Below, in pieces: positions 7,038-59,120 of a stretch of DNA of 64,000 bases (position 1 is the stretch's first letter; each line of letters starts with the position of its first letter). The notes below the pieces were generated by a model. The model did not search any database. It was not told the origin of the DNA and worked only from the letters and a program-made list of their open reading frames with translations. Position numbers and translations under genes: made by a program. Origin of the DNA: Lama glama. Its lineage: Eukaryota. Location: contig CM052816.1 in the NCBI GenBank assembly GCA_028534125.1, positions 75,146,001-75,210,000 on the forward strand, in the 5' to 3' direction.

Positions 7038-7515
7038 TGTCAACTGAAATAAATACACAGCCGAAAAGTTGGGAGTTATCTTTTATTTGGTTGAAAGACT
7101 TGAGCCGGGATGACAGCCTCTCAGATCCCTCTGAGGGACTGCTCCGAGGGGTAGGGGAGGGGCTAGGATGTATAGGAGCTTTACAACAAAGACCAGGTAG
7201 TTGAAACATTAAAAGATTACTTGTTAAGTGAAGAAAACCAGGCATCTCAAGTTAAAGAATTTAGTGCTTTTCTATGTATGGGAGGGAGCAAACGTTTGGG
7301 CTCATTGAATTCATTCCTTTGACAAGCACCCAGCTATCTAGGGCCAGTATCCTGCCCTTTCTTATTTTGAGTCCCCTCAGGGTGCACCGTTGTGAGCGGC
7401 TGCAGAGGCCGGGCTGCAGGCTTGTCTTCCCTGGGGGGTGGCAGCAGCGGCTGATGACTTGATGGTTTCAGCATTCTTTGTTTACTGATATGGTTCTCAG
7501 TATTTTTCGTTAACA
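7038..7515 (-). mobile_element. ERV1 solo LTR, MER41-like (MER41_BT-related)
   Basis: Intact TG...CA ends and 4-bp TSD agta (7034-7037, 7516-7519). Internal 'gacagcctctcagat' and 'gaatttagtgcttttctatgtatggga' are typical of artiodactyl MER41. Confidence 0.9.
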
Positions 7516-9070: not shown

Positions 9071-9315
9071 AAACTGAGAATGGAGCCTTATGAGAGGAAG
9101 TTCTCCTATTAAACTGCCCCCTTGGGGGTTCCAAGCATGATTTTCTGTTCCTGTACCAATGAGTCCATGAAAACTGCTCAAGTTTTCCAGATTGGCAAAA
9201 GCTCTCATGAAAAAATAGTTTTCTCCTATAAGAAGAAACTTTTATATGTTTTTTCCTACAGATAGAATTTGGCCTGAAAAATTTCTTTAATCCTGCAAGG
9301 TCTTCCATGCAGTTA

Positions 9316-9881
9316 CGAGACAGAAAGGGGGCAGGGCACAGCCATTCAAGGAATAACACAGCAATTAACACCAGAATGGTGAAAGATTCAACCCCGAGTA
9401 GGCCTCGATGCTCAAGATGGTGAGAAATTTGACTTCCTTGAGCTTCATTATAGCCCATTGTAATATATTAACATGGTGAATAACATGCCCACAGGTGCCA
9501 TGTCAGTCCCAAGGCTAGCCACAAAAAGTCAAAGAGTGGGCAATGGCCAACTTCCTGGGAATCCCAGCCCCTTTCCCAGGCTAGTGAGACTGGTCCTTCC
9601 ACTTATTAGCATATGAAGCCACTGAACCCATAAAAACTGGCAACCCTCTCTCTCCCTCTTCAGAAATAGCCCACACTCTGTCTATGGAGTGTGCACCTAC
9701 TTTTACTCTAATCTGAGCACCCAACTCCCACACCTTGTAGCCTTTTTCTTCCTTTTGATGTATCTCTCTAAATAAATCTACTTTTATTCAACTGTGGCTC
9801 ACTCTTAAATTCTTTCCAGGGGCTCAACCAAAGCCTGGGACACGGCCTTCCTCATGCCCCACATTCATTTTTCCTGCATCA
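9316..9881 (+). mobile_element. ERV1-class solo LTR (same family as 44771-45411)
   Basis: 4-bp TSD gtta (9312-9315, 9882-9885), ends in ...gcatca, TATA-like cataaaaa 9629-9636, AATAAA 9771-9776. Colinear with the reverse complement of 44771-45411. Confidence 0.9.
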
Positions 9882-10538
9882 GTTAGGCTTAAAAAATACT
9901 TTCCTCAGCATTTTATTTGGTTTCAGCTGAGTCCCTGACCAAATTTTCATCATAAACAGAAATCCATTCATCTATTCTCTCAATCAACAACTATTGACAA
10001 CTGCTACTGTGCTGGATATTTTGGGGGAGACAGTCATGCACTGGGTATCATTCCTGCCTTGCAATCTAGTACAGAGAGAAGTGCATGAAGATTACTTAGC
10101 ATAAAGGTTGTCTGAACTGTAGAGAAGCTCAACATTATTTATAATGCTGTATCTCTGTCTTCTTTTTCCCCCCAGAATGCCAACTGAAGTAGTTAAGAAC
10201 TTAGCTCTGTGGGAAGAAACCTGAGATTTATTACTCTCTGTATCAACACCCCATTTTTTTCCTGGTTCCTGTAAGAGAACAGAGGTTTAATAGGAGGGGA
10301 CTTAGGAACAGCATGGGGGTGGAGATGGGGGCTCCAAGGCATTACCACCAGTTTAAACTCTGTTTTCTTGGAGCCATTATAAAGCTGATGTAGTCTGTTC
10401 TCTCCTGTTATCTGAATCTGCTTCACTTATGTGAACCATGAATTTGACCTTCCTGGGGCACCTACTATCACCAGCATTGTCAAGGAGAGCTCATAGGTAT
10501 CATGTCCAGTACTCATCATGACCATGGGTGTCACTTGT

Positions 10539-13113: not shown

Positions 13114-14240
13114 GGAGAGATATAGACAAAAGAGGCTTATGAGTTCTAACGTCACTATTTTTTAGAAGCTCTTGGAAACCCATCCATGTTGCATAAAGAA
13201 CTTTCACAGATGACTTGTGTGCAGGCACACGTGTAACACCAGGACACCCAGGAAGAAAGCTTTGGGGGTGGAGGGTGGGGCTTGTTCCCTGACGGGTCTG
13301 ATGAATGCAGGCTTGGGTGGAAGCCCGGATGAGGCATGGGTGGGAGCAGGGATGGAGGAAAAGAGTCAATTTTGGAGGTGTGACTCTCTTGTGAGAAGGT
13401 TTCTAACTGAACAAACTTTGAAATAGACTTATTGTTTACATGGATGTCTCCAAATTCAGCGTATGGTATATATCATGGGGCGTTTTTCCTTCAGCAGTAT
13501 TTGTCAAGGATTCTTCAAATAACCCTGTGACCCTCTTAGAATCTATTAAGAAGCAGTTTCAGGAAAGTAAAGCTCTCCAGAGCTCCATCTCAGTTGCTAC
13601 AGTAAGGTAAGATAAAAGAAATGGAAACTAACTACTTTGACAATGGGCTCAGCTTTTAAAGTATCTGTTACTTCTGGCTTTTTGTTTTCTTTTTTGATAA
13701 GGTTACAGAGGTTAAAGCTGTGAGGAAGAATAGCACAAAGCTACAATGATAAGGAAAAGCTGGGCTTTTATTGAACAGCCTTTCATTTCTTAAGACAGCA
13801 GACCACAATGTTATGCACATTTTTAATGAATTCCATTTTTTTTTGGCCTATGATTGATGCAACCCAACAACGAGATAATTTACATTTAAAAATAACAATA
13901 CTAAAAAATTAAAGAGAAGGAGGGTTGCTATGGAAATTATTCCCATACACATGATAGGTGAATGTCTCAATTTGAAATGTGAGGTGGTCTCAGAAGAAAT
14001 ATAAGTTTACACTGCAATAATAATGTAAAAAAAAATCTACTAACCTAAATGAGAAGAACATTATTTGTGTGAGGAAATTCCTTATTTCCTTCTACTTGTA
14101 CAATGGGAATATAACCCCTTGTACTAACAGTGTGATCAGAAACTGAATGGAAGCTAAAAGTTCTCACCCTGTGATTTGTATTTTATCAGCTTGTATACAA
14201 GCATCAAGTCTGAGAGCAAATGAAAATATGCCCCTTTCAG

Positions 14241-24552: not shown

Positions 24553-27161
24553 TCTATTACACCCCACAGAAGAGCTCTTCCTTGCTGTAGCATTGACATA
24601 TTTTAAAGACCAAGTCTTTGTTTAGGTCTGAGATAAGGACCACATATATAGTCAAAAGAAATATGTTATAATCTCTAAGGCCGTGTTTTAAAAAATAAGC
24701 CAGTTGGCTCTGCTCTATAACAGCCCTCTTCAGCACTTCAATTTGTTTCTGATTTATAGAAATATGGGAGGACGGAAGCTCAGGGTCAGATGACAAAAGA
24801 GACTGAGCGGAACTGATGACTAGCTAAAAGAGAGCGGGGATGTGGTTCAGATTTTCAAATTTTTGCCATTTGTCAACTTATCATAGGCTGAGAAGAAGGT
24901 TTTTAAAAATTACTTTTTAAAAACTTAGGCTCTACTTAAAAATACAAACAGAAAGGACTAGACTGTAAACGTTTCCACTTGAAGCCTTTCCAGGTATTGG
25001 AGGTACAGTACATTTAACCCATTTCCTTTTGTGGGGCTGAGCTCCTTAACTATTAAGAGAGAGAAAGGTGGGAGAGATGCCAAGGATGTTTCTTCCTTTT
25101 CTGTTGGGTTCTCTGTGAGACTCCTTTGACTATACTCAGCTGCTCCAATTTCCAGCTTCCTGTGGTATCAGATGTTTGGAAGAAAGGCAAGATCTCTTTT
25201 TAAAGACAGAAAAGGCAAGATCTGTTTAACAAAGAGTCAAAAACCCCTACTCTAATGACTTTGAAATTCGCTGCTTCTGACTCATTTCAGGGCAAGTTTC
25301 CATCTTTCTGGGTGATCCTGATGGTGCCAATCCAACTCTTACACTCAAAGCTCCCGTTCCCCTCCCCTCCTGCCTCCACAGGGCCGTCCATGGCCTCTTC
25401 ATCCTGATCGTGGAGACGAGAAGGCTTGGCATGACGCTTTCTCCTTTCGACATTTTGGGAACGACAAGGCATGGCATTGACAAGCCTTCCTAATCATGGC
25501 CCTTCGTGGAGGAGCTAAACTGGCTCCTAAGGAATAAAATGGCCAAACTAGCATTGTCAGTGGTCATAGGATCAAAGGCTCCGTGTATTGACTCGTTAAT
25601 AATGAGACCTCTTCTAATACAGGAATTTCTTTCAACATCTGCCTCAAACTCATAACTACAACCTGGCTGGTGAACTATGTTTTTACAAGAAACAAGTCAT
25701 GAACAAATATGACTCAAAGACATCTTACTCATCTAAATGGTAGAACACTTTCCTTTTCTATTGGTCACTTCTATCTGAAATGTCGTGGCCAGAAAGTAAT
25801 ATTTTAGAAAGCCTGTAAACAAACAGATAGATTTCTCAATATCTACGTAGTAAGCTCTGCACTTTTTTTATACGGTCCCTCTGAGCTTCACTTTGTGCCT
25901 GTATATTCTTTATTCTTGCAGTATACAAAATTCTAACAAGCTTAGGAGTATGGTTTCCCAGTTCATAATATATTAGAAACAATGTATCAGAAAGGGCAAA
26001 CCCATTAGAATGAGCAAGAGTCACAAAAATAATCATATTGTGATGGGGGATGCAGAGACATGTGAAAAGGCAGATTCAAGAACTACAAACAAACAAACAC
26101 TACAGTAGCCTAGAGCCATTTTGTTCATACAACTGGCCCTCTTTACTCATATTGGAAAACATTTCTGTATTACAGCCCTGCAGGGTAATCGGACGTTCAT
26201 GATGTTGACCTTGAATTGTCAGGCAAAATAAAGAGACAAACTCATGACAGAGTTTAAGAGGCAGAGAAACATTCCATGGTATTTTAGAAATATCCTCAAA
26301 TAAAATAGTTCAACTAAAATGTGTTCACTGGCTCTAAAGGAGAAGCTATGCTTACCTGGAAAATCTATGTGAAACATCGTATCTTGTAATAAAGTCAAAT
26401 AAGCTAGGTGAGTTATGTGGTGAGAGTTGAGGAGTACAGACAATACAGTCTCGATTTCATAGACATACTGAATTACTCATAACATAATAATTCCTGCAAT
26501 AAAACTTAACAATAATATATTGTCTCTGTTCCTAACATGGTTGGAGTTGGGGCTGGAGAGAGGGAGATGAGAAAAACAGGTCTCTGTCCTACACACAAAA
26601 TGTTTGCACCTGACTAGTTACCTCCAGTTGGGAAGTTGTGGGGAAGATAAATTCTCTAAACCATGTAAAATTCAGATAGTCTGATCAATAACAGATTGAA
26701 ATAATTCAGTTAGCAAATGTTTTCAGTAGAGTGGAGGAATCACATTTAAACAACCCAAACCAGGGGAAGAAAGCCTTAGCATCCCAAAAAGTTTGGATCA
26801 CCATATCTCAGTATTGGATTTGGCAGACGGAAGGGACTCAACACATGGGTTTGTTCAGATTCACCAGGTTTCTCTGAAGGAGACACCAAGGATATTTTCT
26901 TCTCCCTTGTTATTAGACTTTCCTTCATCTACTTTCTTGGATACTATGGAGATAAGTGTTCTGAAGCCACCTAGAAAGAAGCATATTAATGATTTTATTT
27001 TTAAGCATCTCTTAGTAAGAGATTTGAAAATTATTATTTGTAAGTTTATAAGTAGATATGTAACAAAGCACTGCAAATTGAATCCTCCAGACACGCTGAG
27101 TTAGCACCAAAGACCCATGAATTATAACTATTCTAAACTCAAGTCAGAAGTCCTCAAGGTT

Positions 27162-27337: not shown

Positions 27338-28209
27338 AGAAGTCCTCAGGATTCCTCACTTACCTCTGCTTCCCAGCTTTCACTCCCAAAGATGAGCCAT
27401 ATTTTCCATTGATCACATTGTTTTAAGCTCTCTCACAGCCTGTGGTGGGGGCCATGAGGTGCTGGTGAGGCTCAGGCAGTGTCTCTTCTATCACCAATTT
27501 GGGGAGCTTAGCACAGGCTATTCAGAGTCCCAGGGTCCCAGTCATCACAAATCTTTTTTATAAAGCCTCTGTCTCTCCAGAGGGATGAGCATCTATAGTG
27601 ATGTGAGAAAGGGGAGGGAGCTAGTGAGGACAACTTGGGTCCTTCTGAAAATTCAAAGAATCCTTAGGAGTGTGTGACAAAGATTTGCTAATGCATAAAA
27701 GATCTTTCCATTCAGTGATGTCTCACCTCACTCCTACTTGTGCAGGTCAGTATTCCCTTTATAGCTCTGTGCCACAAATTCAGTGGGTACTCCTTAATTT
27801 CAGGCCCATGCCTCTACTGGTTATTATGGCTGCCCTTTACAGCAGTTCTTTTCCTAACTCTGACTTCATTGATAAAAGCCCATGTCTTTTTCCATATCTG
27901 GTTCATCTACTTTGGGAGGAAGTTGGCTCCTGGAATCCAGCCCCAATATGACTCTGTGAAATATGAGAGACCACCTTCTGCCCACTCCAAAGCAATGACT
28001 GCATTGTCCTCGGAGTCAACCTGAGTTATTGTATACTACCTCAGACTGTGCCCAGATGCTTTCTACTCATGACTGATGGAGGGTTATAGCTCAAAATGAT
28101 GACTGGAAATAACTACTGTGGAATTTTTTAAGACATGATAGCGTTTAAAGCAATTTCATATGCTTGATCTGTTGTGAACCTCAAAACAGTCTTGTGTAGA
28201 AAGTAGTAC

Positions 28210-28641
28210 AGTTACTGAGTTCAAACTCGTTCTGCTTGCCACATGGCAGGCCAATAAATCGGGAGAAGAGGTGCTGGGGCAAGGAATCGCGAATTTATTC
28301 GGAAAGCTGGCAGACCGAGAGGATGGCAGACTAACGTCTTGGAGAACCATCCTGGTCCAGTCAGAGTACCGGCTCCTTTTATACAAACAAACAGGGGAGG
28401 GGGTGTGGTTGGTTGTTGCAGACTTCTTGGTGTGGGAATTCTTGGTCCCTGCAGCTGTCCACGTGGGCCAGCTCATGGTGCTCCTGCAAAACCTCCAACA
28501 AAACAAATGTTATTCTCTGTTCTGCAACTTGTTATCTTTATGGAGTGCAGAGCTAGCAAGACTAAGCCGAGAACACAGGGCACGGTGGTCAAAGCCACAG
28601 GAACAGACCTAGTAGAGTCAGATCCGTTCTCCTCCATTGGA
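28210..28641 (-). mobile_element. ERV1-class solo LTR inserted in a MIR
   Basis: 'gttactgagttcaaactcgttctgcttgccac...ggccaataaatcg...tttattcggaaagc' resembles antisense laurasiatherian ERV1 LTRs. Flanked by gtac/gtac (agtacag repeat). MIR sequence continues on both sides (about 28150-28205 and 28650-28745). Confidence 0.8.
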
Positions 28642-31600
28642 GTACAGGCATTAGTTAGTTTTGTCATCCTTACTTTAGGGAGGAAGAAGCTGAAAGAGTG
28701 ACTTATCCAAAGTCACAGGCCTAGGAGCTGGCAGAAGGAAAAGTCTGATTGTTCCATCTTGTCTGCTTCCGGCTGCTGCCTCTCTGGGCCATTGTTGAGC
28801 ATCAGGTGATGCCGTGATATGACAACAACAACGACAACAAATAAATGTTGTCCCTTGGATGTGAAGGTGATGGTGTGGATTCCAGGAAAAGTGGGTGTGA
28901 AACTGTTCATCTTCTAGTTTCCCATGTCATTGGCAGGTATTTCCGAACTCTTTGGGATTCATGAGAAATGAAACCTTGAAATGAGGTAAAACTAACTGGT
29001 CTTTTTGGTAGTGAAGCCTTTGATCTGATTGGCATTGGGCTCTCTCTCTAATCGAGAGGACAGTCATGTAAGTAATAGATTAATAAGCTGCTTTCATTAA
29101 AGGGTAGAGGAAACTAGAAAATGCCTACAAATGTGTGACATGCCCAATTAAAACTATGCTCTGTGCCCTTTCCTATTATAAATTTGATAAAATGAGTGAG
29201 TTTAATTTATATATCGTTCCTTTGGAGCAGAAATTCTGGAATGAAACCAGCAAAGGCAACACACAGGTGACTGCGTGTTGCCGGGACGCCTGCCCACCCC
29301 CACCCCCCTGCCACTGCTCGCCTATACGTGTTACAAGCACATTTCAAAGGACTCGTAACTTCCACACTCCTGTGGTCCTGCCAGCTCAATTAGAGGGGCC
29401 AGCCTGGCCTTTTTCATTGGGCCCTTTGATATCGGTGGGGATCTTAGGGTTGAATGAGAGAATAGAATGAGAAGCTGGTTCCAGGGGAATGTTTGATCTC
29501 AGAGTTGGGTCACGGTGAGAGCAGACACCGCCTGTGAGGACAGTTTCATGCCAACTGAGGCGATCAGTCTCTTCCAGGCTGACTGCAGTTGAACGCAGGC
29601 ATTTACCTTAGCTAACCCCTGAATGACTGTGTATCAGCAATGAGCACACTCTGTGAGGCTGGAGTTCCAATCAGGCCAGGTCTGCTCTCTGAAGCAGGAG
29701 ACTTGCTCAGGGTCTGTATTCAGGCTTCCTGCTAAAAGTGTTCCAGAGCAGAGGTGGACCGTGGAGCAGACTCCAGATCCCCACTGCTGCTTCCACTCAG
29801 ATCCTGAGAGGACTGGCCTTTTCTCCCACTGACTATTTTAACCGGGAGAAGAAAGAAATGGAGAGAGATGAAGAAATGAAGAGAAACAGGGCACAAGGGC
29901 AGAAAGAGGGATGGAAAATGCGGCAGGTGTCTGGGGGGCTTGTATACCTGGGCCAAAAACAAATGCTAAAACAAGGCCCCATGCAAAAAAAGAGACTCTC
30001 TTCTTCCTTTGTACCCTTGATCTCAGACAATCAAATTTCTTTCAGTACAATCTTTACTGTCACGCACAAATATACACTCAAGATTTAGCTCACTACCTCT
30101 AGTCCTTAGAACACCATTAGTGAGGACAATTGGGTTCCCAGAGTGCTTGGTGAAAAAGCAAAGTGCCCATCCCCCAGTGAGCTTCAAGGCCTGCTTTCTC
30201 CTCCTCCTGTGCTCTGTATAACCACTCAGGCTGCACAGAGCCACTCTCCGGCTGAGGTACCACTGGTATATCTGAAGCAGGTCTCCCTCTGAGGTAGAGC
30301 CATATACACAGAGCTGGCCTCCATCTGATGTCCACAGCACATACAGAGCCAGCCTCTCTTTGAGGTACTTAAGTAGAAAACGATAAATGTACAGAATAAG
30401 GAAAGGAAGAAGGAATGATGCTTCTCTCCATCTCTATTTGTTCCAATTTTCAGAAGCAAACAGAAGACTGAAATGTGAGAGAAGTAAATAGATACTGCAT
30501 TTATCATTAAAATTAAGGAATTTAATTACAATTTGTCATTAAAAAGTTAAGGAAACCATAACTTTGGAACCATTTCTGCTATAAAACAAGGGCTCAGTGT
30601 CCTAATAAATGTGACTTACGGTTCAACAACTGACATTAAGAAGACAGAGGAAAACAACAAATTATGGTCCATTTCAACTTGAACTTATGGAAAATCATGG
30701 CGACTCACCTCCAGGAAAAAGGGAACTTCAGGAATATTTTTGGCTATCCTGGACTGGGAGGATTAGAGTTTTGCCTGAATCAAATGGCATTAGTGACAGT
30801 CAAATTGTGTCATTTAGAACTACTACCAGGAGATGACAGAGACCATCTCCAATGTGGTCTGCAAGATTTGGGGGAAACATTTGTGTCTGTAACAATGCAT
30901 GGTGCTCTGTATGATCCACATGATTTGTTTTCATTTTCAAAATGTAGTGCTCTGCTGAGACAGAACTGAAGGAATAAATTATTTTCTCTAGTTAATGCCT
31001 CAGGTCAGACACCTTCCTGAATTAAGTATTGTTGCTAGCAGGACTGCCTAAAAGCGTAATTCATGACTCATGGGCACATATGGCAAAGATATTTAAAACA
31101 AGGCTCGGGTGTGGAGTTCCATTTATACCTATGGTGCCATTAGCACTAATGAGGGCTTCACAGTGAAGACTGATTAAGCCTGGGTGCTTCTAGCCACACC
31201 TAAGGGAGATGTAGAACATCTATGAACAGGAAGTCATATTACTGGGTTACTTTTACGAAAATAGAAAAGAAAAATATAGTGTTACCCTTTTCCAGATACA
31301 GAAAAATAGAGAAATATCAACTTACTGTTGCTTACTGTCTTTTTTTTTTTAACCATACTTTGTTAGAACCAGAAGGCATGATGGGATGTGAGCAAAGCCT
31401 GGGTTCAGAGAGGACCTCTGGGTGTCATCCAGACCCAGAATCCATAGGGATACATCAATTTCGGTGGAGCTGAAGTAGGGATATCTTATCCCAGGGAGGG
31501 CCCAGTAGGATGGAAATCCCCGAGGCTATGTTTGAAACTTCAGAGGCCACGTGGACATCAACGTGGTTCTAGAGATGGGACCATGGCAGGGGAAGCCCAT

Positions 31601-42554: not shown

Positions 42555-43045
42555 TTTTTCTGTAATAGCTTTTTGAGATATAACTGGCACACAATAAACT
42601 TTGCATAATTTAATTGTGCAATTTGATAAGTTTTCAACACTTACACATACGCACACTGTAAAGCCATAATCAAAGTCAAGATAATGAACATACCCATCAC
42701 CCCTTTGTAATCACTGCCTCCCACTCCTGGCTCCTTGACATCCCTAGACAACCATGGACCTGCTTTCTGTTAGTATTGGTTAATTGTATACTTTCTAGAA
42801 TTTGCATACAGGAATCATCTAGTACGTATTCACATCTGTCTGGCTTCTTTAACACAGGATAATATTTTTGAGATTCATCTATATTGCAACAATTATTGAC
42901 TTGTATCAATAGTTCATTTCCCTTTTATTGATGAACAGTGTTTTATTGTATGAATATATTACAATTTGCTTACCCATTCACCTGTTGATGGACATTGCAA
43001 ATAAAGTGGCTATGAACACTTCTGAACAAGTGTCTGTATGACACT
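42555..43045 (-). mobile_element. Old L1M (MB/MC/MD-like) 3' end
   Basis: 'aatagctttttgagatataa...tgtctggcttcttt...gagattcatctat...ccattcacctgttgatggacatt'. Confidence 0.85.
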
Positions 43046-43254
43046 TCTTATTTTTCCACTACCATGAGGACTCTAATTACACGTAAAATTTAGGATGCCT
43101 GAAGTTGTTTCATGGCTTGCTGGGTCTATTAAGCAGGAAAACTGTGAGTAGTATGATTGAGGGCTTGGATTTTTAACTTTATTTAATTTTAATTAATATG
43201 CTTATACAATTATATAGCCATGAGGCTAGTAGATTAAATATTGGACAGTGTCAA

Positions 43255-44320
43255 TATACAGAATGAAAACAAACAATAAACAAATAGACAAAAATGTCTA
43301 GTGATGGTAACTGATATGAAGGAAAGCAAAGCATGGTGAGAAGTTAGAATGAAGGCTGAGATGAAGGCGTGGAGTCTTTTTATGTAAGAAGGAAGGCCTC
43401 TCTGAAAAGGTGCACTTGAGCATAATCCTGTCAAAAATGAGGGAGCAAGACCATTGTTTGATTGGGGGAAAGAAATTCTGGCAGAAGGAACTTGAATTGT
43501 GAAATTCCTGTCGAGGGAGCAAGCTCGATGTCCTCCAGAAACAGCAAGGATGCCAGTATGAATGGAGTACACTGAGGGGAAGGGAGAGTGACAAAGACAA
43601 GACTAGAGGGCTCTTACGGGGTCAGATCATGCAGGCCCCTGTAGGCCAGGGGTAAAGGCTTGGAATTTGTTCTGATTAAACGGAGACTACTTTGTGTGTT
43701 GAACAGAGCAGTGGCATGATCTGACACATTTTTGAAAGCACTGCTCTTGTTGCTGTGTGAAGAGAAAATTGTGGAGAGCAAGGAAGGATGGAGAAAGACT
43801 AATTAAGAAGCCCTTGTAATAATCTGGAGGAGACAGGATAGCTATGCAGGGTGTTAGGGGGAAAAGTGTTAAGAAGTGGTCACATTCTAGACATATTTTG
43901 AAACAGAGTTGATAAAATTTGCTGATGAATTGGCTATGTGGTAGAAGATCAACAGAGGGGTCAAAGATGACCTCTAGTGTTTTGCCTTAAACATTGGAAG
44001 AATGGAATTTCTATTTACTGAAAAAAGAAAAATTGTATGAGGAAGAGGTTTGCGGGGGTGGGGGTGGGGGTGGGGTGGGGTGGCAAGTAAAGCATTCAGT
44101 TTTGGACATAATAAGTTTGAGCTGCTTTTTGAACTGATGGAGAGAAAATCTGAGTAGGAAAACAAGAGACTGCAGCTTAGGGGAGAGTATGTTCAGGACA
44201 TAAAAATATGGAAGTTACCTGGATATGGATGGTATTTAAACCAAACAGGATCCCCTAGGGAGTAAGTATTTATAAAAAGGAGAAATGCCCCCAGACAAAG
44301 CCTAAGTGCCTTAGCAACCC
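43255..44320 (-). mobile_element. L2 LINE, about 1 kb
   Basis: 'gaaggcctctctgaaaaggtg', 'ggggtcagatcatgcaggcccctgtaggcca', 'gtcaaagatgacctctagtgtttt', 'ttcagttttggacat'. Confidence 0.85.
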
Positions 44321-44770
44321 AGCACTCGTGTTGCTTGGACCTCTGAACGCCATATACTCCTTACTTGAGTACTTGGCTTCTTCACTACGTGGAATTTCCT
44401 GACAAAAATGGTGGTTTTTTTTCCCATGCATTTTGTGTGTTTTTGAGGAAATTTTATTGCAATAACCACCTGGATAACAACTAAGCCAGAAGAGTGGCCA
44501 CAGATCACTCTCAGAAGGAGAGAAGGTATATATAACTTGCAGGCAAAGGTAAGAATAGCTTAGGGTCACTGGTAGGGCTAGGAGCTCCTCAGTAAGCTCT
44601 AAAGAGAGTCATTTACCAGCGTAAGGAAGAAACACTTTCCTGGGCAAAGGGCCACTCTGTGTGATCATGCACGTTGTGTATCGCACACTTCTAGTGTTCC
44701 CATTGTGCACATAGGTTTTATATTTATTTTAACAATTTTCCAGAAGATGCAGGAAAGAGTCTTGAGGAAG

Positions 44771-45411
44771 TGATGCAGGAAAAACATATGTGGGGTGTGA
44801 GGAGAGCTGTGTCCCAGGCTTCGGTTGAGCCCCTGGGATGTGCCCTGCTAAGTCTGGGTCCTTGGCTTCCCGCAGGAAAGAATTCAAGAGTGAGCCACAG
44901 TTAAGTAAAGTAGATTTATTTAGAGATACATCAAAAGGCAAGAGAAAGGCCACGAGGTGTGGGGGTTGGGTGCTCAGATTAGAGTAAAAGTAGGCACACA
45001 TTCCATAGACAGAATGAGGGCCAGTCTCCTAAGGGGAGGGGGAGAGAGAGAGGCTGCGGTGGCCATGAGGTGCTGTGTTGCCAGTTTTTATGGGCTCAGT
45101 GGCTTCATATGCTATTAACTGGAAAGACCAGTTTAACTAGTCTGGGGAAGGGGCTGGGATTCCCAGGAAGTTGGCCATTTCCCACTCTGACCTTTTGTGG
45201 CTAGCCTGGGGACTGCCAAGGTGCCTGCGGGCATTTTATTCACCATGTTAATGTACTACACTGGGCGTACAATGAAGCTCAAGTCTACTAGAAGTCAAAT
45301 CTCCCACCATCCTGAGCCTCAGGGCCTACTGGGGGTTGAATCTTTCTCCATTCTGGTGTTAATTGCTATATTATTCCTTGAATGGCTGTGTCCTGCCCAT
45401 CTCCTGTCTTA
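44771..45411 (-). mobile_element. ERV1-class solo LTR (same family as 9316-9881)
   Basis: 4-bp TSD gaag (44767-44770, 45412-45415), antisense poly(A) signal tttatt at 44915-44920. Colinear with the 9.3-kb copy. Confidence 0.92.
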
Positions 45412-45794
45412 GAAGGGATACGTTTTATTTTGCCCAAAGGCCCAACATTCTCTAAATGTGACGTGAATCTTGAGCCCCCAGTGCTGGAGGAGAGCAGCCC
45501 TCTCAGAGGTCTCTCAGTGAGAAAGGAGTGGGGAGGGGGGTCTTCTGATTATGTCTCTTTCCTGTTCCTGCCCCAGGCTTACCAGGCAGAGTACAGAAGT
45601 GACCGGGGATAATTCCTCCCCAGTACAGAGTAATATAATATAGTCCAACCTGGATATTTTTGGTGTAGATGCTTTGGTAATTTCTGACTGTATTTGTATA
45701 AGTTTCTTGAATTTTTTATTCCCTTCCTCTCTGACAAACCACCAGAGTACAAGTTGAGAGAGGTATTGCAGGAAAGCAGATTGAAGAAAGGATT

Positions 45795-46460: not shown

Positions 46461-47694
46461 ATATACTCTATGTATTCAAGGGGCCATTACTGTCATGCTG
46501 AGAACAGGTCTCCATCACAGTGAAATGTCAACAAATGAAACATAAAAACCAAACGTATTGTTTGATCTACAGCCTCTCCCACAGCAATCCTCTCTATATC
46601 ATGCCATGTTATCTTCCCAACAGCCCTGAGAGGTGAGTTTCATTTTGCCAGGTTTTAAAGGTAAGGAAGCTGAAATACAGTTAAGTATAGTTCAGTGTTA
46701 TGTTATTTTCTTTGAAAATGGTTATAAGTACATAGCAGGGCTCTTGATTTTATTTTTCTCTCCTACTACATCATGCTAGAAAAAGGTTCCATTCTGATAA
46801 TTTAATAGACTATTTTTATTTCTCTTCACCTATTCCTCCCCAGTTCTCAGTGCTACATTCCCGTTCCCATTTTAAAGGAAAGAGTTCTATGAGCCACACA
46901 CATACAGTTTGTTATGAAAGATTCAGACACAGAATGTAGATCATTTTTGATTCCTGTTTAAGGGAAAGATAGCTCCTCTGCTCCTGTCTGACCTTGGCAA
47001 ATTTGGCAAGGTTTATTTTAGACACTGCCAAATGTTTGATCTTTTTAATTAGTATGTCCTATGCCTTTATAGCAGCCATCCCCCAGAACCTCAAAAGCAA
47101 TTCATAGTCATTAGGAGTTAATATGCTCAGTGTCTGTGAGGCAGGCATGGTGCAGGTGGTGTTATCTGCCTTTTCACATGGGGGAACTGGAAGTCACTGT
47201 GATGCTTCTGGGCTGTTCTGAGGGGGATTGGGTGACTCAAGAGTAGATCTCAGTTGTTTATGCAGAATCAGAACTCTCACCAGTATACTTCTTAGCTGGG
47301 AAAAAATTATCTGGGACCAAGAGCAGGAATAGTAGAGCTGTCTTATTAAAATCCAAATCCACTGTTTCTTACTGCCTCGTACTAACCTTTCCCTTTACTC
47401 AAACAAGGTTTTACAGATTTTGAAGCACTTAGTCATTCATGAATGTATATATGCGTCAATCCATTTGTTCATCCATCCTTGCATCCGTGTATCCATTAAT
47501 AAGTTCTTCAGAATAAAGCAGATGCTTAACAGATGCATGTGGAGAGAATAGTGTGATAAATAAAAAGGTAGAAGTAATTAATTCTACCTGGGGTTAGCTT
47601 TAGAGAGACGATAAGTTGTATCTTGGAAACAGCAACCCATGAGGTGCAAAACTCAAGCAGATGTCTTAAATTATGCCCCCATCAAGCTTTAGAG

Positions 47695-47872
47695 CCATAC
47701 TTCTCAGATGTCAGTGTGCATGAGAATCACAAGGAGGGCTTGTTGAGCCACACGTTCCTTGGCCTCCATCTTTAGCAACTCTGATCCATAAGTCGGGAGC
47801 GAGTGTATCTCTAACAAGCTCCTGAGTCGTGCCACTGCTGCTAACCTATGGACCACACTTTGAGGACCACCG
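47695..47872. mobile_element. MER5A hAT-Charlie element
   Basis: 'cttctcagatgtcagtgtgcatgagaatcacaaggagggcttgtt...ctaacaagctcc...ggaccacactttgaggaccac'. Confidence 0.85.
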
Positions 47873-48255
47873 CTTCAGAGGCAGACAAACCTTTGAAGTC
47901 ACTGTTTTAACTGTGTGATTCCCATAACTCATTTTTCTAGAACCCCACATTAGTATAATCTAAGAATGGCAGTGATCAGTGAATAAAAACTCTCACTGTT
48001 AAAAAAAGAGGCAAATATGACCCAAACATTTTCAGTGATTTGCAGATTACCGAGTCAGTAGCAAATTTTACTTCACACAGCTTTCCAAACCATGATTTCT
48101 GTTGAATTTGTCTCAGAGCTGATCCTCTCTGTCTACCAGTACAGGTTTCAATTACTTTTATGAGTGTTGAAGTGCTGATCGAACAGTGGCTTGTGAGGGT
48201 AGGTGGGGGCATCAATACTCAGACCAGCTGCAAAATAAACACCAGAATGGTGTCA

Positions 48256-48522
48256 ACTGAAAGGAAAACACAGACTTGTAAGTTTCAGTTTTATTCAGGG
48301 AACTTAGTGAGAGTCACAGCCCTGTTAGGCTTCTTTCTGGGCTGGGCTACAGCAGTGTCCAGGACCTGGCCTGCCAGTGGTGGGGGGGCAGGTAGACGGA
48401 TAAGTTTCGGTTTCACATTTCTTGTCCAGGTGCCCAGTTCGGTTTCTAAAAAGGGAGCCTGACGGGACGTCTTATGCGAGACAAAGTCGTAAAGCCTTAT
48501 AGGATTCGGTGGGTTCCGTTTC
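48256..48522. promoter_or_regulatory. ISRE/IRF motif cluster, candidate interferon-responsive promoter or enhancer
   Basis: AGTTTCGGTTTC 48403-48414 (perfect ISRE), AGTTCGGTTTC 48436-48446, AGTTTCAGTTTT 48281-48292, GGTTCCGTTTC 48512-48522, G-rich Sp/KLF-like box 48382-48392, and 9 CpGs in 48397-48518. Confidence 0.6.
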
Positions 48523-48814
48523 TTTAGACTATCATTAGGGGAGGAATGGCCTCTGGAAACAATAAATGGCACTGAAGACCAAGAAGAATTAAGGAATGAG
48601 GTGTCCACAATTGAGAGTAAGACATAAGACTGTGACGGTCTTTACAGCTTTTGGTTCCTGAATGCTGCCTGGGATTGTAGGGGCAGATGGGCCCCTAAGG
48701 TAGGGAAGTCTTTCTCTAGACATTTTAAGGTCTGCAGGAACTAGAGGCTCTGTGAATGGCCACTGAATTTTTAACATGTAATTTAGAAGCCAGTATGAAT
48801 TTGTAAAGGGAGTT

Positions 48815-49055
48815 CTGTGCTGTTGAGAAAGCATGAGGTTTGGAATTCAAAGACACAGGTTCTGGTGTCTGTTCTGGTTCATGGGACCTGGTCAGGTCCC
48901 TAACCTATTTGGACTTCAGTTTCTCTGGTTCTAAAACAAAGTTAAAACCCAGTTATAATGATATTCACCCTACTTAACCCACAGTGTTGCTGTGAGGATC
49001 AAATGAGATAACACATATGAAAATGTTTTGCAAATATAGATGCTAGTTTATTATT
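48815..49055 (+). mobile_element. MIR SINE
   Basis: 'cttcagtttctc...gttgctgtgaggatcaaatgagataac'. Confidence 0.8.
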
Positions 49056-49599
49056 TTGGGGTGTCTGGTGTTGCAGGGCATAGAAGATAAATGTAAAATA
49101 TGGTCACTGCCCATAAAGAACTTACAATTTAGTTGGGGTGATAAGACTTACCCCCATGAAAAATTAAGGCTTTCATAAAACTCAAAATAGGGAATAATAG
49201 TCAGAGGAGGCCGTATAAGACTTAAGATGTGGGCAACGCCCCCAAAATGAAATGCTACGAAGCCTCCATGAGTTTGCATCAAGCAACTGAGCGTCATTTT
49301 AGTATATATATTCTGTTATTTCTTCTGCTCCTGGACTGTGAGCTGCTCTACAGCAGGCATTTTATACTGTTCGTCATTTTTAACCCCAAAGCTTAGCATA
49401 GTGCCTTACACTTATAGACGTTCAGTAAACAAACAGTGACTTACTGACAGACTGACTAAGAGAACGAATGAATACACCGCAAGGAAAAGCCCTGTTTTGA
49501 GCATCATGCCAGGATCCTGGATCAAGAAGCCGTGGCATTTTTTAAAGTGAAGCATATATTCAGAAATTGAATAAATGATAAATATAACAGGTCTTTTCA

Positions 49600-54978: not shown

Positions 54979-55140
54979 CAGTGGCTTTCACACTTGACTG
55001 CATGTGAGAATCACCTGGGGAGTTAAAAAAAAAAAACTCATCTGGGGAATTAAAAAAAACTCAATGACCAAATCTCATTCCAGACCAATTCAGAAAATTC
55101 TAGAGGTGAGATCTACGCATTAGCTGGTATTTTAAAATTG
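54979..55140. mobile_element. MER5A1-like element
   Basis: 'cagtggctttcacacttgactgcatgtgagaatcacctggggagttaaaa...ccagaccaatt'. Confidence 0.7.
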
Positions 55141-55399
55141 TGATGTCTTAGATAATGAGAGTGTCTATACTATTGTTTCTAGAAAACAAATACTATCATT
55201 CAACTGTTTAGTTAGTGAGTTTATTTTAAGAATAATTTTTTTCTCCCCCAATGTAAAAGTAGTTTATCTTCACTGTATAAAATTTGAAAATAATAGCAAA
55301 AAAACTGTAGAACTCCAAGATATCAATTAGCAAAGTGATAATTAGGTGAAGTATAGGTATATTCATTCTCCAAAGGTCTTTCTTACTAAACCAATGTTG

Positions 55400-57330
55400 A
55401 TCATATAATCATGTAAGTCTACAATGATTTACCATGGCAAATGCCAGAAAGGAAAATATAGGTAGTTATTAGAACATACAGTAGGAGAACCTCTTTCAGG
55501 CTGGCACTCAGAATGATTTTCCCTAAAAAGTTGGAGTTGAAAACTGAGATTTGCAGAACAAAGAAAGAATAGGAATGAATTAGTCAAAGGTAGATGGGAA
55601 AAGCCCTCGGATATAGAGTTAACAGCCTGACAGAAGACCACTGGGTAGAGTGTGTGTGTGTGGGGGAGTAGGCACAGCCTCTTCTATCACTAAAGACCAG
55701 GGTGTCTGAAGTGTAGGGGATGGGGAGTCTGTAGAGGAATATGGGAACCCACTTTTTCAGACATTGCAAAGCACATTAAAATTTTTGGTCTTATTTTAAG
55801 TGCATTGGGAAATCACTAAAGGATTTTAGGCAGAGACATGGAATGATCAGAGTTGTGTTGATCAGTTGTGTTGATCAGAGTTGAGTTGAGAAGACCTCTT
55901 TGCCTTGGAGGCTAGACTAGAGAAGGCACAAGGAAAATGGGGTGATCAAGTAGAATAAAAGCTGATAGATTAACAGTAGCTTAGACTGAGATGGTAGCAA
56001 GGGAATTACAGAGAAAGGGCAGGGGAGAAGAGAACAGATTAGATATTCAAGAGGTAGAATTGGCAGAATTTGGTGAAGGATTATATGAGAGAATTAAGGA
56101 GGAGAGTGATTTTCTGGCTTTAATCATTGGTTATAAGATACTCTGTTTCCTAAGACTGAAAAGAGGGTGGAGGACAAGATTGGAAGGAAAGAAGAATTCA
56201 GTGTTGAACAGGTTGATTTTGAGGTATGCTTAATATGACCAAGTGGAGAAAATACATTAAAAATGTGGAAAATCAAGCTAGGAGCTCAGAAGAGAGGTTA
56301 GGGTGGGAGGTATATATCTGAAAATTACTGGTTTGTGACTGTTGATTAAAGCCTTTGGTGGTAGTGAGATTTCCAGAGGAGAAAGGGTAGACTTTAGAAG
56401 AGGTCAGGCTGAGTCTTGAAGAATGCTAATACTTATATCCAGATAGAGGAGGCTGAATTCACAAAGGAAACTGAGGAGGACTGAGAGGCAAGAGGAAAGT
56501 CAGGAAGGTTCAAAGAAACATGAAGAAGACAGTGTGGACTTTTAAAATAAGGACTTGTTACTAGTGCAAAATTCTGCTGGCAACTCACCTAAGATGAGGA
56601 CTGAGAAATGCCTGTGCCTTTTAGCAATGTGGAGGTAGGTCAGCAGTGACCTTAATAAAAGCCATCCTGGTGAGGGGTGGGTGTATAATCAGATTCCACT
56701 GTCCCGAGGAGTGGGTGGGAGGTGAGGAGAGAGCCAATAAGGATAAAAAAAAAAATTACTTTTAGAAGTTTGGCAGTGAAGGGGAGAAGAGAGGTAGGGT
56801 GATTATAAAGGGTTATGTGGCTGAAGGAAGTGTTTTGATTTTGTGTTTTAAGATGGGATAGACTTGAGGCTATTTGAAGACTCAGCTAGAGATAGTTTCT
56901 GAGGAGGTAGGATGAAATTGGGTTAACAAAAAGAGGGGCTGACTTAGACAGGAGGAAGTACACCCTTTCTTACAACAGGAGGAATTAGAAAAGTAGGCAT
57001 ATACATATAGTAAGGTATGCAGGTTTTGTCAAGGCACACAGGGGTTTCTTGTCTGTGAGCATCTATTTCTCTGTAAAGTAGCAAGTGAGGTTGTCTGCTG
57101 TGAAGACTGCCTGTGAATTATGGGGTATATATATGAGTATGTGTGTGTGTGGGTGTGCAGGTGTGTTAAGGTATGCTGGGGACAGGGTCAGAGGTTGAAA
57201 GAGAGTGGAAGAATTTTGAAATAGTCATTACAGAGAGTGGGAAATTGAGCTGACTAGATCAAATAGTGGAATTACTGGGTAGTGTTGAGGTTTAGTTGAA
57301 GGAAATGATCATGAATTTATAATAATACAA
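55400..57330 (-). mobile_element. Long decayed L2 LINE segment
   Basis: Purine-rich antisense L2 motifs: 'tgggaaatcactaaaggattttaggcag', 'gaggtagaattggcagaatttggtga', 'ctaagatgaggactgagaaatgcc', 'gaagtttggcagtgaagggg'. Confidence 0.8.
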
Positions 57331-57340
57331 GTACACTTGC

Positions 57341-58560
57341 TTCATTTACTTATTCATTCAACAAATATTTATTGTGTTAGCACTGTTCTAGGTACTGAGG
57401 ATATAGCAACAACGAAAGAAAATCTGTGTCATCATAGAACCTACATTCCCACAGAGGAAGACAAAAATCATGTAAATAAGTGTATCATATGCATAATGTT
57501 AGGTGGTGATAGATGCTGTCCAGAAAAATCACAGGCAGTTATGGGAGGACATTTGTTATGCAGGGTAGTCAGGGAGAGAGACATTTAAAGCAGACACATG
57601 AATGAAATGTGGAAGTGATACTAATTGAACTGGAAGAAGAGTATTTCAAGTCAGGAAATACTTGGTAAATGCAAATGCCCTGAGGCAGGAAGAATCAGCA
57701 ATGAGGTCAGAGTGGCTGGAGTGACACGAAGAGGAGACAGGCCAGCATGGAGAATGTGGGCCAAATCACTGATTGTTCTAAAGCAAGGAAAGGATTTTAG
57801 ATTTTTTAACTGAAGTATGGCAATACTGTGTTAGGTGTACAGCAAATGATTCAGCTATACATATATTTCAGATTATTTTCTGAAATAGGTTATTACAACC
57901 TATTATTTTCTGTATAGGTTATTACAAGATATTGAATATAGTTCCCTGTGCTATACAGTAAACCCTGTTGCTTACTTATTTTATCTATAGTTGTATGTAT
58001 ATGTTAATCCCATACTCTTAATTTACCCTTCCCCCCACCTTTCCTCTTTGGTAACCCTAAGTTTGTTTTCTATGCCTATGAGTCTGCTTTCACTCTGTAT
58101 AGAGATTCATTTGTATTATTTTTTAGATTCCATATGTAATTTGAATTGTAATCAGAGGGAGCTGAGAAGCCATCAGAAGGTTCTGAGCAGGAGTGCCATG
58201 ATAGATCTTGCATGTTGGAATTTTTCTCTAGAAAAACTCAGCTGCCTGAGGGCAAACTTGGAGGATGTCCTGGACTTGAGTTGGCAAGTACAAAGGGAAG
58301 ACAGAGAGGTATCGAGCATAGAGTTATGGAGCTTGTTGACTCTAGAATATAAGTTGGCTAAGGAAGGACATTAAAGACAGGTAGAAGCCAGTGGATAGGG
58401 AAAGGACAGAATTATCAATGAACTTGAGGCTCCATAAGGATAAAGAATGGTCAAACAAATTAGTGAGAAGGAAAGGAGACCAGTCAGAGAGGGGTATGTG
58501 GGTTTAAGGGCAGTGTAGCCTCATGCAATGCCAAGATCCATGGTGTAACTGGGAGAGAGT
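57341..58560 (-). mobile_element. Second L2 3' end (own tail) with nested L1, followed by further L2 remnants
   Basis: Tail 'ttcattcaacaaatatttattg'; 'gcaaatgccctgaggcagga'; resumes after the L1 with 'gaagccatcagaaggttctgagcagg'. Confidence 0.7.
57803..58137 (-). mobile_element. L1 3' end nested in L2
   Basis: 'ggttattacaagatattgaatatagttccctgtgctatacagta...ggtaaccctaagtttgttttctatg...ttttagattccatatg'. Confidence 0.9.
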
Positions 58561-58966
58561 GGTTAAGTGAGAAGGTTGAGGAAGGGAGAGGCTAAGTGTT
58601 TGCTGAACTAGGTATATAATTATATTTTAATATTTAGTTTAAGCTGAATTTTTTTCCATTAGCTATACACTTAAAAAAATGTTCTAAAGAACACTGGAAA
58701 CCTTGACAAAACACGTTACTGTTAAGTAGGGCAGAGTTCAGAGTCCTGTTTAGAATGCTTTAAAAAGAAGATTTTCTTGAGTGGTGTCCTATTGAAACAT
58801 CGATGAAGGAGGTGTGTTTGGTGCTAGTCAAGTATGAGTGGGAGAGTAGGTAGGTGGGCTCTAGAGTTTTTAGCACTGTTTAAGTGGGTCACAGCTAGAA
58901 AGTTTGAGAATTGCTAAATTATTTCACCACATTCACTTAAAAAATGAATTAACTGAGACCACTTAA

Positions 58967-59120
58967 TAGTGATTAACCTGGCTGATTACTGAATCATCTA
59001 CAGAGCTGTTTCAAAATACAAGCACCCAGTTCCCACCCTGGAACTAATGAAGCCCTTGTATATTTGTATATTTATACAAATCTCAATGGACTTTGCACAG
59101 CCAGGATTGGAAAACCACTG
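58967..59120. mobile_element. MER5A1-like element
   Basis: 'aacctggctgattactgaatcatct...gcacagccaggattggaaaaccactg'. Confidence 0.65.

Follow-up and report, generated by a model that had tools for sequence, protein, structure and literature searches.

What is the origin, and what could be the role, of a cluster of ISREs and CpGs lying in llama DNA that is otherwise starved of CpGs? The cluster lies near position 48400 of a 64,000-nt stretch of Lama glama DNA (assembly GCA_028534125.1, contig CM052816.1, positions 75,146,001 to 75,210,000 of the forward strand), hereafter called the window, whose coordinates are used throughout. An earlier, sequence-only reading had taken it for the plus-strand first exon of an interferon-induced lncRNA or ISG in unique DNA, with a strong IFN enhancer as its alternative. 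Our analysis suggests another source for these motifs, namely a solo LTR on the minus strand.

Tandem ISREs and chance expectation

The motifs are as follows, where the names of LTR parts refer to the minus-strand element proposed in the next section:

48403-48414, with third half-site ACATTTC to 48421, plus strand: ISRE core AGTTTCGGTTTC, perfect consensus
48436-48446, plus strand: second ISRE core AGTTCGGTTTC, 33 bp past the first core and one T short of consensus
48511-48524, plus strand: degenerate ISRE, 2 mismatches to consensus
48281-48292, plus strand: degenerate ISRE copy, overlapping the minus-strand poly(A) signal
48259-48267, facing the opposite way to the ISRE copies: GAAAGGAAA, within the U5-like terminus
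48379-48389, plus strand: G-rich box (GC/GT-box-like) with G-run 48382-48388, between the ISREs and the TATA-equivalent position
48294-48302, no strand assigned: GAS-like TTCAGGGAA in the R region, weak, one of 25 TTCNNNGAA sites in the window

All five interferon-type motifs of the sequence-only reading are present, i.e., the perfect ISRE with its ACATTTC extension, the near-copy downstream, the degenerate copies at 48281 and 48511-48524, and GAAAGGAAA near 48259, as is the G-rich box described upstream of the first ISRE. Two of the five, the 48281 copy and the 48259 motif, are ordinary LTR-end features, the latter being plain U5-terminus sequence if the segment is an LTR.

Both strong ISREs, at 48403 and 48436, read as GAAA repeats in the sense of the minus-strand LTR. 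We take the 12-mer AGTTTCGGTTTC to be the core of the ISG15 ISRE. For the 12-mer found at 48403, the expectation is 0.001-0.003 exact copies per window, and it forms the core of an ISRE used in reporter plasmids (PMC2193138). The generic form, AGTTTCNNTTTC, was present in 37 of 150 simulated windows and is thus not rare; the window itself holds a further perfect consensus match at 13616 on the minus strand. None of the 150 simulations, which followed a homogeneous model, had two cores at most 60 bp apart, a pattern picked after the site had been seen. Since ISRE copies with one mismatch are common (44 in the window), the degenerate copies at 48281 and 48511 add little. The tandem ISRE pair exceeds chance, and a putative IRF/ISGF3-responsive element at the pair is plausible. 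The strong IFN enhancer that had been offered as an alternative survives as a candidate.

Likeness to a solo LTR and boundaries of the element

The features on which the LTR assignment is built are these:

7038-7515, minus strand: reference solo LTR, 478 bp, TG...CA, with an exact 4-bp target-site copy (AGTA), TATA at -137, AATAAA at -50 and no ISRE
48251-48609, minus strand: proposed solo ERV1-type LTR, 359 bp, TG...CA, from LTR likeness, anatomy and boundary candidates
48247-48250: left flank ATGG, candidate target-site copy with 1 mismatch to ATTG; weak, one of nine candidate ends
48610-48613: right flank ATTG, candidate target-site copy
48251-48289, minus strand: U5-like terminus, 12 bases identical to the end of LTR 7038-7515, with the likeness continuing
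48290-48295, minus strand: AATAAA poly(A) signal, 45 nt from the LTR 3' end
48356-48363, minus strand: presumed TATA-equivalent position, aligned to the TATA of LTR 7038-7515; not TATA-like here

We regard 7038-7515 as a solo LTR because of its TG...CA ends, its AGTA target-site copy and its TATA and AATAAA anatomy. The start of our element at 48251 coincides with the terminal 12 bases of this LTR, which are identical and have only two plus-strand occurrences in the window, and the likeness runs on inward from the shared 12-mer over 48251-48370, i.e., the R/U5 end. The inward likeness score was 19, compared with a shuffle mean of -21.7 (sd 8.5), and 0 of 1000 shuffles scored as high; anchored likeness was reached by 2 to 7 of 3000 shuffles over 70-130 nt and by 45 of 3000 over 50 nt. 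Outward of the 48251 boundary, no likeness to LTR 7038-7515 was found (612 of 1000 shuffles as high), nor did 48371-48609 align to it (497 of 500 shuffles as high). An unanchored search of the window gave a best score that 2 of 40 shuffles of the query also reached. In all, 25 exact anchors were tested in two directions each, giving 50 tests, and one other anchor (48242 against 11236, minus strand) likewise beat 300 of 300 shuffles. Corrected for the 50 tests, the likeness to LTR 7038-7515 alone has p of about 0.03. Two further observations carry weight beyond this value, namely that the likeness starts exactly on the terminal base and that the poly(A) signals have matching offsets (AATAAA at -45 in the element and -50 in LTR 7038-7515). 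Judged on the sequence comparison, 48251-48370 is very probably of LTR origin. The cluster had been placed in non-repetitive DNA, a description at odds with the resemblance of its left 120 bp to the terminus of the solo LTR. We tentatively apply the label ERV1-type in view of the 4-bp target-site copy of LTR 7038-7515, and the 48251 end seems to us reminiscent of MER4-group ERV1 LTRs. Across the left boundary, 15 bases (48238-48252) equal 9367-9381 of an LTR at 9 kb exactly (13 in its copy at 45 kb), with no extension on either side; this is probably chance.

The left end at 48251 is well placed, and the far (right) end has candidates at 48581, 48609, 48624 and 48776. No exact target-site copy was found for the 48251 end; the only 4-mer that is repeated exactly would set the ends at 48248-48581, and chance alone predicts about 0.5 matches of this kind. 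A flank copy with a mismatch is in keeping with some age of the element. A PBS-like start directly after the 3' end was not found, as expected of a solo LTR, and no second copy of the element's family was found. At -45, the poly(A) signal falls in the interval of 40-60 nt before the 3' end that is usual in LTRs. The position aligned to the TATA at the U3/R border is not TATA-like, and a minus-strand TATAA is found at -251 instead. Counted from the 3' end, the CpGs lie at -268 to -148 and the strong ISREs at -196 and -164; 3'-ward after the ISREs come the G-rich box, the TATA-equivalent position, the GAS-like site at 48294, the poly(A) signal and U5. The U3 of LTRs is the site of promoter and enhancer elements (PMC11007075), and the strong ISREs and all CpGs of this element probably sit where U3 would be. 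From size and anatomy, it is likely that the ISREs lie inside the same LTR as 48251-48370, and the LTR itself likely extends across them to about 48609. We infer that the ISREs and CpGs came from the virus rather than by later gain.

CpG block

The presumed U3 includes the following features:

48397-48518, no strand assigned: CpG block, all 9 CpGs of the element
48460: CRE half-site, within the CpG block
48501, minus strand: TATAA, within the CpG block, -251 from the LTR 3' end

The count of 9 CpGs in 122 bp amid a CpG-starved window, on which the sequence-only reading had remarked, was reproduced: this is the densest 122 bp of the window, whose overall CpG O/E is 0.17, and such a density occurred in 0 of 150 simulations under the homogeneous model. 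The CpG O/E of the 48251-48609 element is 0.46, compared with 0.36 for the LTR at 7 kb and about 0.40 for an LTR-like element at 28 kb; therefore, LTR origin accounts for the amount of CpG. The next densest spot in the window (28218) is also inside the LTR-like element, and the pair of LTRs at 9 kb and 45 kb has CpG O/E of 0.13-0.16. That a young repeat might explain the CpGs had been anticipated; a repeat it probably is, with a CpG level like that of local LTRs, but youth was not shown. The distribution is a separate matter. If the CpGs were evenly spread, finding all 9 within 122 of 359 bp would have p 0.0009, and the R/U5 part has zero CpGs, compared with 9 plus both strong ISREs within the 122 bp. 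The clustering may reflect the family's own layout or local protection from methylation by bound factors, and such protection would explain it equally well as LTR origin does. A CpG island at 48397-48518 was considered and rejected, the block being only 122 bp long with GC 0.47.

Candidate plus-strand exon, donor and direction of transcription

The exon proposed for the plus strand corresponds to one feature:

48529-48616, plus strand: exon candidate with acceptor-like end at 48528, AATAAA at 48561 and donor AGA/GTAAGA at 48617; probably incidental and antisense to the LTR

The donor is indeed present at 48617, at or beyond the far boundary of the proposed LTR, and is unremarkable: scored by a weight matrix, it was matched or beaten by 184 of the 3422 plus-strand GT sites in the window, and donors scoring as high lie within 450 bp at 48199, 48278 and 48700. 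The AATAAA that had been suggested to end a short eRNA is likewise present at 48561, inside the proposed exon and antisense to the LTR, and is probably incidental. Within 5 kb, AATAAA occurs 5 times rightward and 10 times leftward, whereas strong donors number 3 rightward and 4 leftward, and AATAAA within 1-2 kb shows no difference. The open frame of 48529-48616 gave no Pfam match or protein relative, and the frame over 48493-48624 gave no protein relative in a weak search. With an LTR-like segment on the minus strand, an average donor and no coding exon, the proposal of a plus-strand first exon in unique DNA is not upheld. In a minus-strand LTR, which the segment resembles, the native promoter would point leftward.

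Gene context, presence across runs and database searches

No Pfam family reached the cut-off in the 246 stop-free segments of at least 60 aa in the window, among which there were a few weak matches with E 0.005-0.05. Among 59 splice-bounded exon candidates, 56 gave no match at E 0.01, the other 3 being left out as already covered or L1-like. A coding exon was thus not found in the window, and non-coding, very short or more distant exons may exist. There was no Rfam match, no tandem repeat lay over the motif cluster, and 30026-30433 had no PDB match. A metagenome pattern scan returned 3 unrelated loci, which shared nothing but the pattern itself; viral pattern scans returned 0 and 55 loci, none of which aligned beyond about 20 bases, and scans of genome contigs and plasmids returned 0 loci each.

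In 16 DNA runs from six studies and under five organism labels, three of which runs may be the source, 0.93-1.00 of the words of 47500-49500 were found. Considering that the element makes up 18% of this interval, it is therefore present in all 16 runs and is fixed, not a fresh insertion. A young polymorphic insertion was accordingly rejected, the element being present under all five labels. Four RNA or possible-RNA runs contained 0.05-0.11 of the same words and carry no weight regarding expression.

As a lead, the cattle TSS table would place the window, provided that gene order is conserved, in the interval from the DAB2-PTGER4 desert to the C6-PLCXD3-OXCT1 region. PTGER4 is listed in a table of bovine leukocyte ISG gene sets. 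In cattle, no IFN-gamma-inducible LTR was present at chr20:31.4-37.1 Mb among the 30 chr20 rows covered from Table S7; these rows span 2.7-58.9 Mb and 60 of 130 places, for a single cell line under IFN-gamma alone, and cattle may lack an orthologous copy. The gene names searched were absent from cattle Table S6.

Other elements in the window

On opposite strands, 9318-9884 and 44768-45412 are copies from a single LTR family, identical at 500 of 562 aligned bases, and each copy of the pair keeps a GAS-type site (9345 and 45374). The LTR at 44768-45412 lies 2.8 kb from the ISRE element, so that a candidate STAT1 site in one LTR neighbours a candidate ISGF3/IRF site in another. An LTR-like element occupies 28170-28620; it has a candidate target-site copy without mismatch (GATC), 7 CpGs in 122 bp, and long open frames without a Pfam match. 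A CpG-dense patch (7 in 122 bp) at 25330-25500 lies behind a pyrimidine-rich acceptor-like site, and the frame 25302-25490 had no protein relative in a weak search. The perfect ISRE consensus match at 13616-13629 (minus strand) is single, lacks CpGs and lies beside exon-like 13500-13604, and 51427-51452 matches the context of the first ISRE at 21 of 26 bases (E 0.75), probably by chance. Strong positive GC skew (0.23-0.49) was seen over 55001-59000 and 43001-45000, which we take to be probably old L2-type repeats; strand skew was rejected as a guide to transcription, giving no steady signal.

Competing explanations

On the sequence evidence, we favor, at about even probability, a minus-strand solo class I (ERV1-type) LTR that would have brought IRF/ISGF3 sites in its U3 and would act as an inducible enhancer. 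The same LTR could instead be an inert relic, its ISREs and CpGs being viral leftovers in methylated chromatin and unbound in vivo. This would agree with a TATA-equivalent position that is not TATA-like, with the lack of a coding exon in the window and with a CpG level ordinary for the LTRs there; moreover, cattle MER41_BT is inducible in only 107 of 5491 copies, though 1071 hold a GAS match (PMC9435751). Yet 9 CpGs and both strong ISREs survive jointly in 122 bp, with CpGs lacking from the R/U5 part, and the core is identical to a reporter-grade ISRE; we consider an inert relic unlikely, if far from negligible. It is also conceivable, and in our view quite unlikely, that the LTR is a fragment limited to 48251-48370, or that the ISREs arose after insertion, the ISRE/CpG block then being an enhancer under host selection whose bound factors keep it free of methylation. 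The failure of 48371-48609 to align to LTR 7038-7515, the uncertain far end, the CpG clustering (p 0.0009) and the fixation of the stretch (16 DNA runs, five organism labels, 0.93-1.00 of words) argue for such an enhancer. Against it, the block lies 148-268 nt from the LTR end, just past the TATA-equivalent position, where U3 enhancers lie, and LTR subfamilies usually differ in U3 while sharing a related R/U5.

An interferon-inducible promoter on the plus strand, whose first exon would run to the 48617 donor and belong to a lncRNA or distant gene, or an antisense promoter in the LTR, seems improbable. Tandem ISREs without a TATA, a donor in about the top 5% of GT sites, the exon-like 48529-48616 and the scarcity of AATAAA rightward in 5 kb (5 vs 10) speak for it, but 184 of 3422 GT sites equal or beat that donor, an AATAAA (48561) falls inside the proposed exon, and neither strong donors (3 vs 4) nor AATAAA within 1-2 kb show a difference between the two sides. 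Furthermore, no coding exon was found and the LTR anatomy faces the opposite way. Very improbable is pure chance, by which both the motif cluster and the LTR likeness would be coincidences in old intergenic DNA: a single ISRE consensus did appear in 37 of 150 simulated windows and one other anchor had a similar extension score, but tandem cores and the CpG density each occurred in 0 of 150 simulations, the likeness starts on the exact terminal base of an LTR bounded by target-site copies, and the poly(A) offset matches.

Proposed mechanism

If the favored LTR explanation is correct, type I/III interferon, viral sensing or IRF activation would lead ISGF3 or IRF1/3/7 to bind the two or three GAAA repeats at 48403-48446. 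Binding would open this site, which could then act as an orientation-independent inducible enhancer. If the element makes a transcript of its own, this RNA would begin near 48330-48350, run leftward and reach the poly(A) signal at 48290-48295, and so be short at most. That the element controls a host gene is unlikely. A wider possibility, which we hold to be decidedly unlikely, is that a non-MER41 ERV1 LTR family in camelids spread tandem-ISRE type I interferon enhancers and that this copy was co-opted in the 5p13-equivalent immune region (PTGER4, CARD6, complement genes).

Comparison with known systems

Other mammals are known to have interferon switches of viral origin. Interferon-inducible MER41_BT enhancers and a promoter have been described in cattle (Kelly et al. 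2022, PMC9435751), and MER41B plays such a part at AIM2 in primates (Chuong et al. 2016, on the account given in PMC9963469 and PMC11007075). The ERVK (HML-2) LTR has two ISRE-like motifs that are proposed to recruit IRFs, their half-sites being described as mutated (PMC3598470). By de novo count, camelid genomes hold over a thousand ERV1 elements (PMC8605555). Our literature search, which did not extend to subscription papers and repeat databases, found no report of an ISRE-bearing camelid LTR, and a literature search by sequence returned no relevant paper. The ISRE core itself occurs in 16 papers, in one of which it serves as a reporter oligo.

Like the ERVK LTR, the llama element appears to carry ISRE-type GAAA repeats within an endogenous retroviral LTR; unlike ERVK, which is human, class II and has an LTR of about 970 bp, it is short and of another class, and one of its sites is a perfect consensus. 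Canonical ISG promoters of the ISG15 type have tandem ISREs. The llama element shares with them the identical 12-base ISRE core, the tandem sites and the lack of a clear TATA, and differs in that no coding exon was found in the window, there is no CpG island, and the host sequence is apparently a repeat. With LTR 7038-7515 it shares the related R/U5 end, the poly(A) offset, candidate TG...CA ends and a similar CpG level; that LTR differs in having a U3 that is not alignable and lacks an ISRE, a TATA at -137, an exact target-site copy and a length of 478 rather than about 359 bp.

On present evidence, the element adds one example to the LTRs with interferon motifs, which are well described as a class. 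If the wider possibility of a co-opted copy from a camelid LTR family is true, it would be a further independent LTR co-option into mammalian interferon networks, via ISGF3/IRF and not STAT1 dimers. Should the ISREs prove to be shared by the family, camelids would have their own set of type I interferon enhancers derived from viruses. Camelids are unusual in their handling of viruses such as MERS-CoV, on which such a set, if real, would bear.

The closest parallel is MER41. We take the LTRs at about 9262-9885 and 44768-45412 to be MER41-like, and the local scores of the 48251-48609 element against them (28-30) were within those of shuffles; by this comparison with two local LTRs, the element does not appear to be MER41-like. 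Like MER41, it would be an ERV1-type solo LTR with interferon-response motifs, in principle an inducible enhancer or promoter. Unlike MER41, whose activity depends mainly on GAS/STAT1 sites under IFN-gamma, it has tandem ISREs as its strong sites. The segment is most likely an LTR-borne interferon-responsive element comparable to the MER41 enhancers, ISRE- rather than GAS-based.
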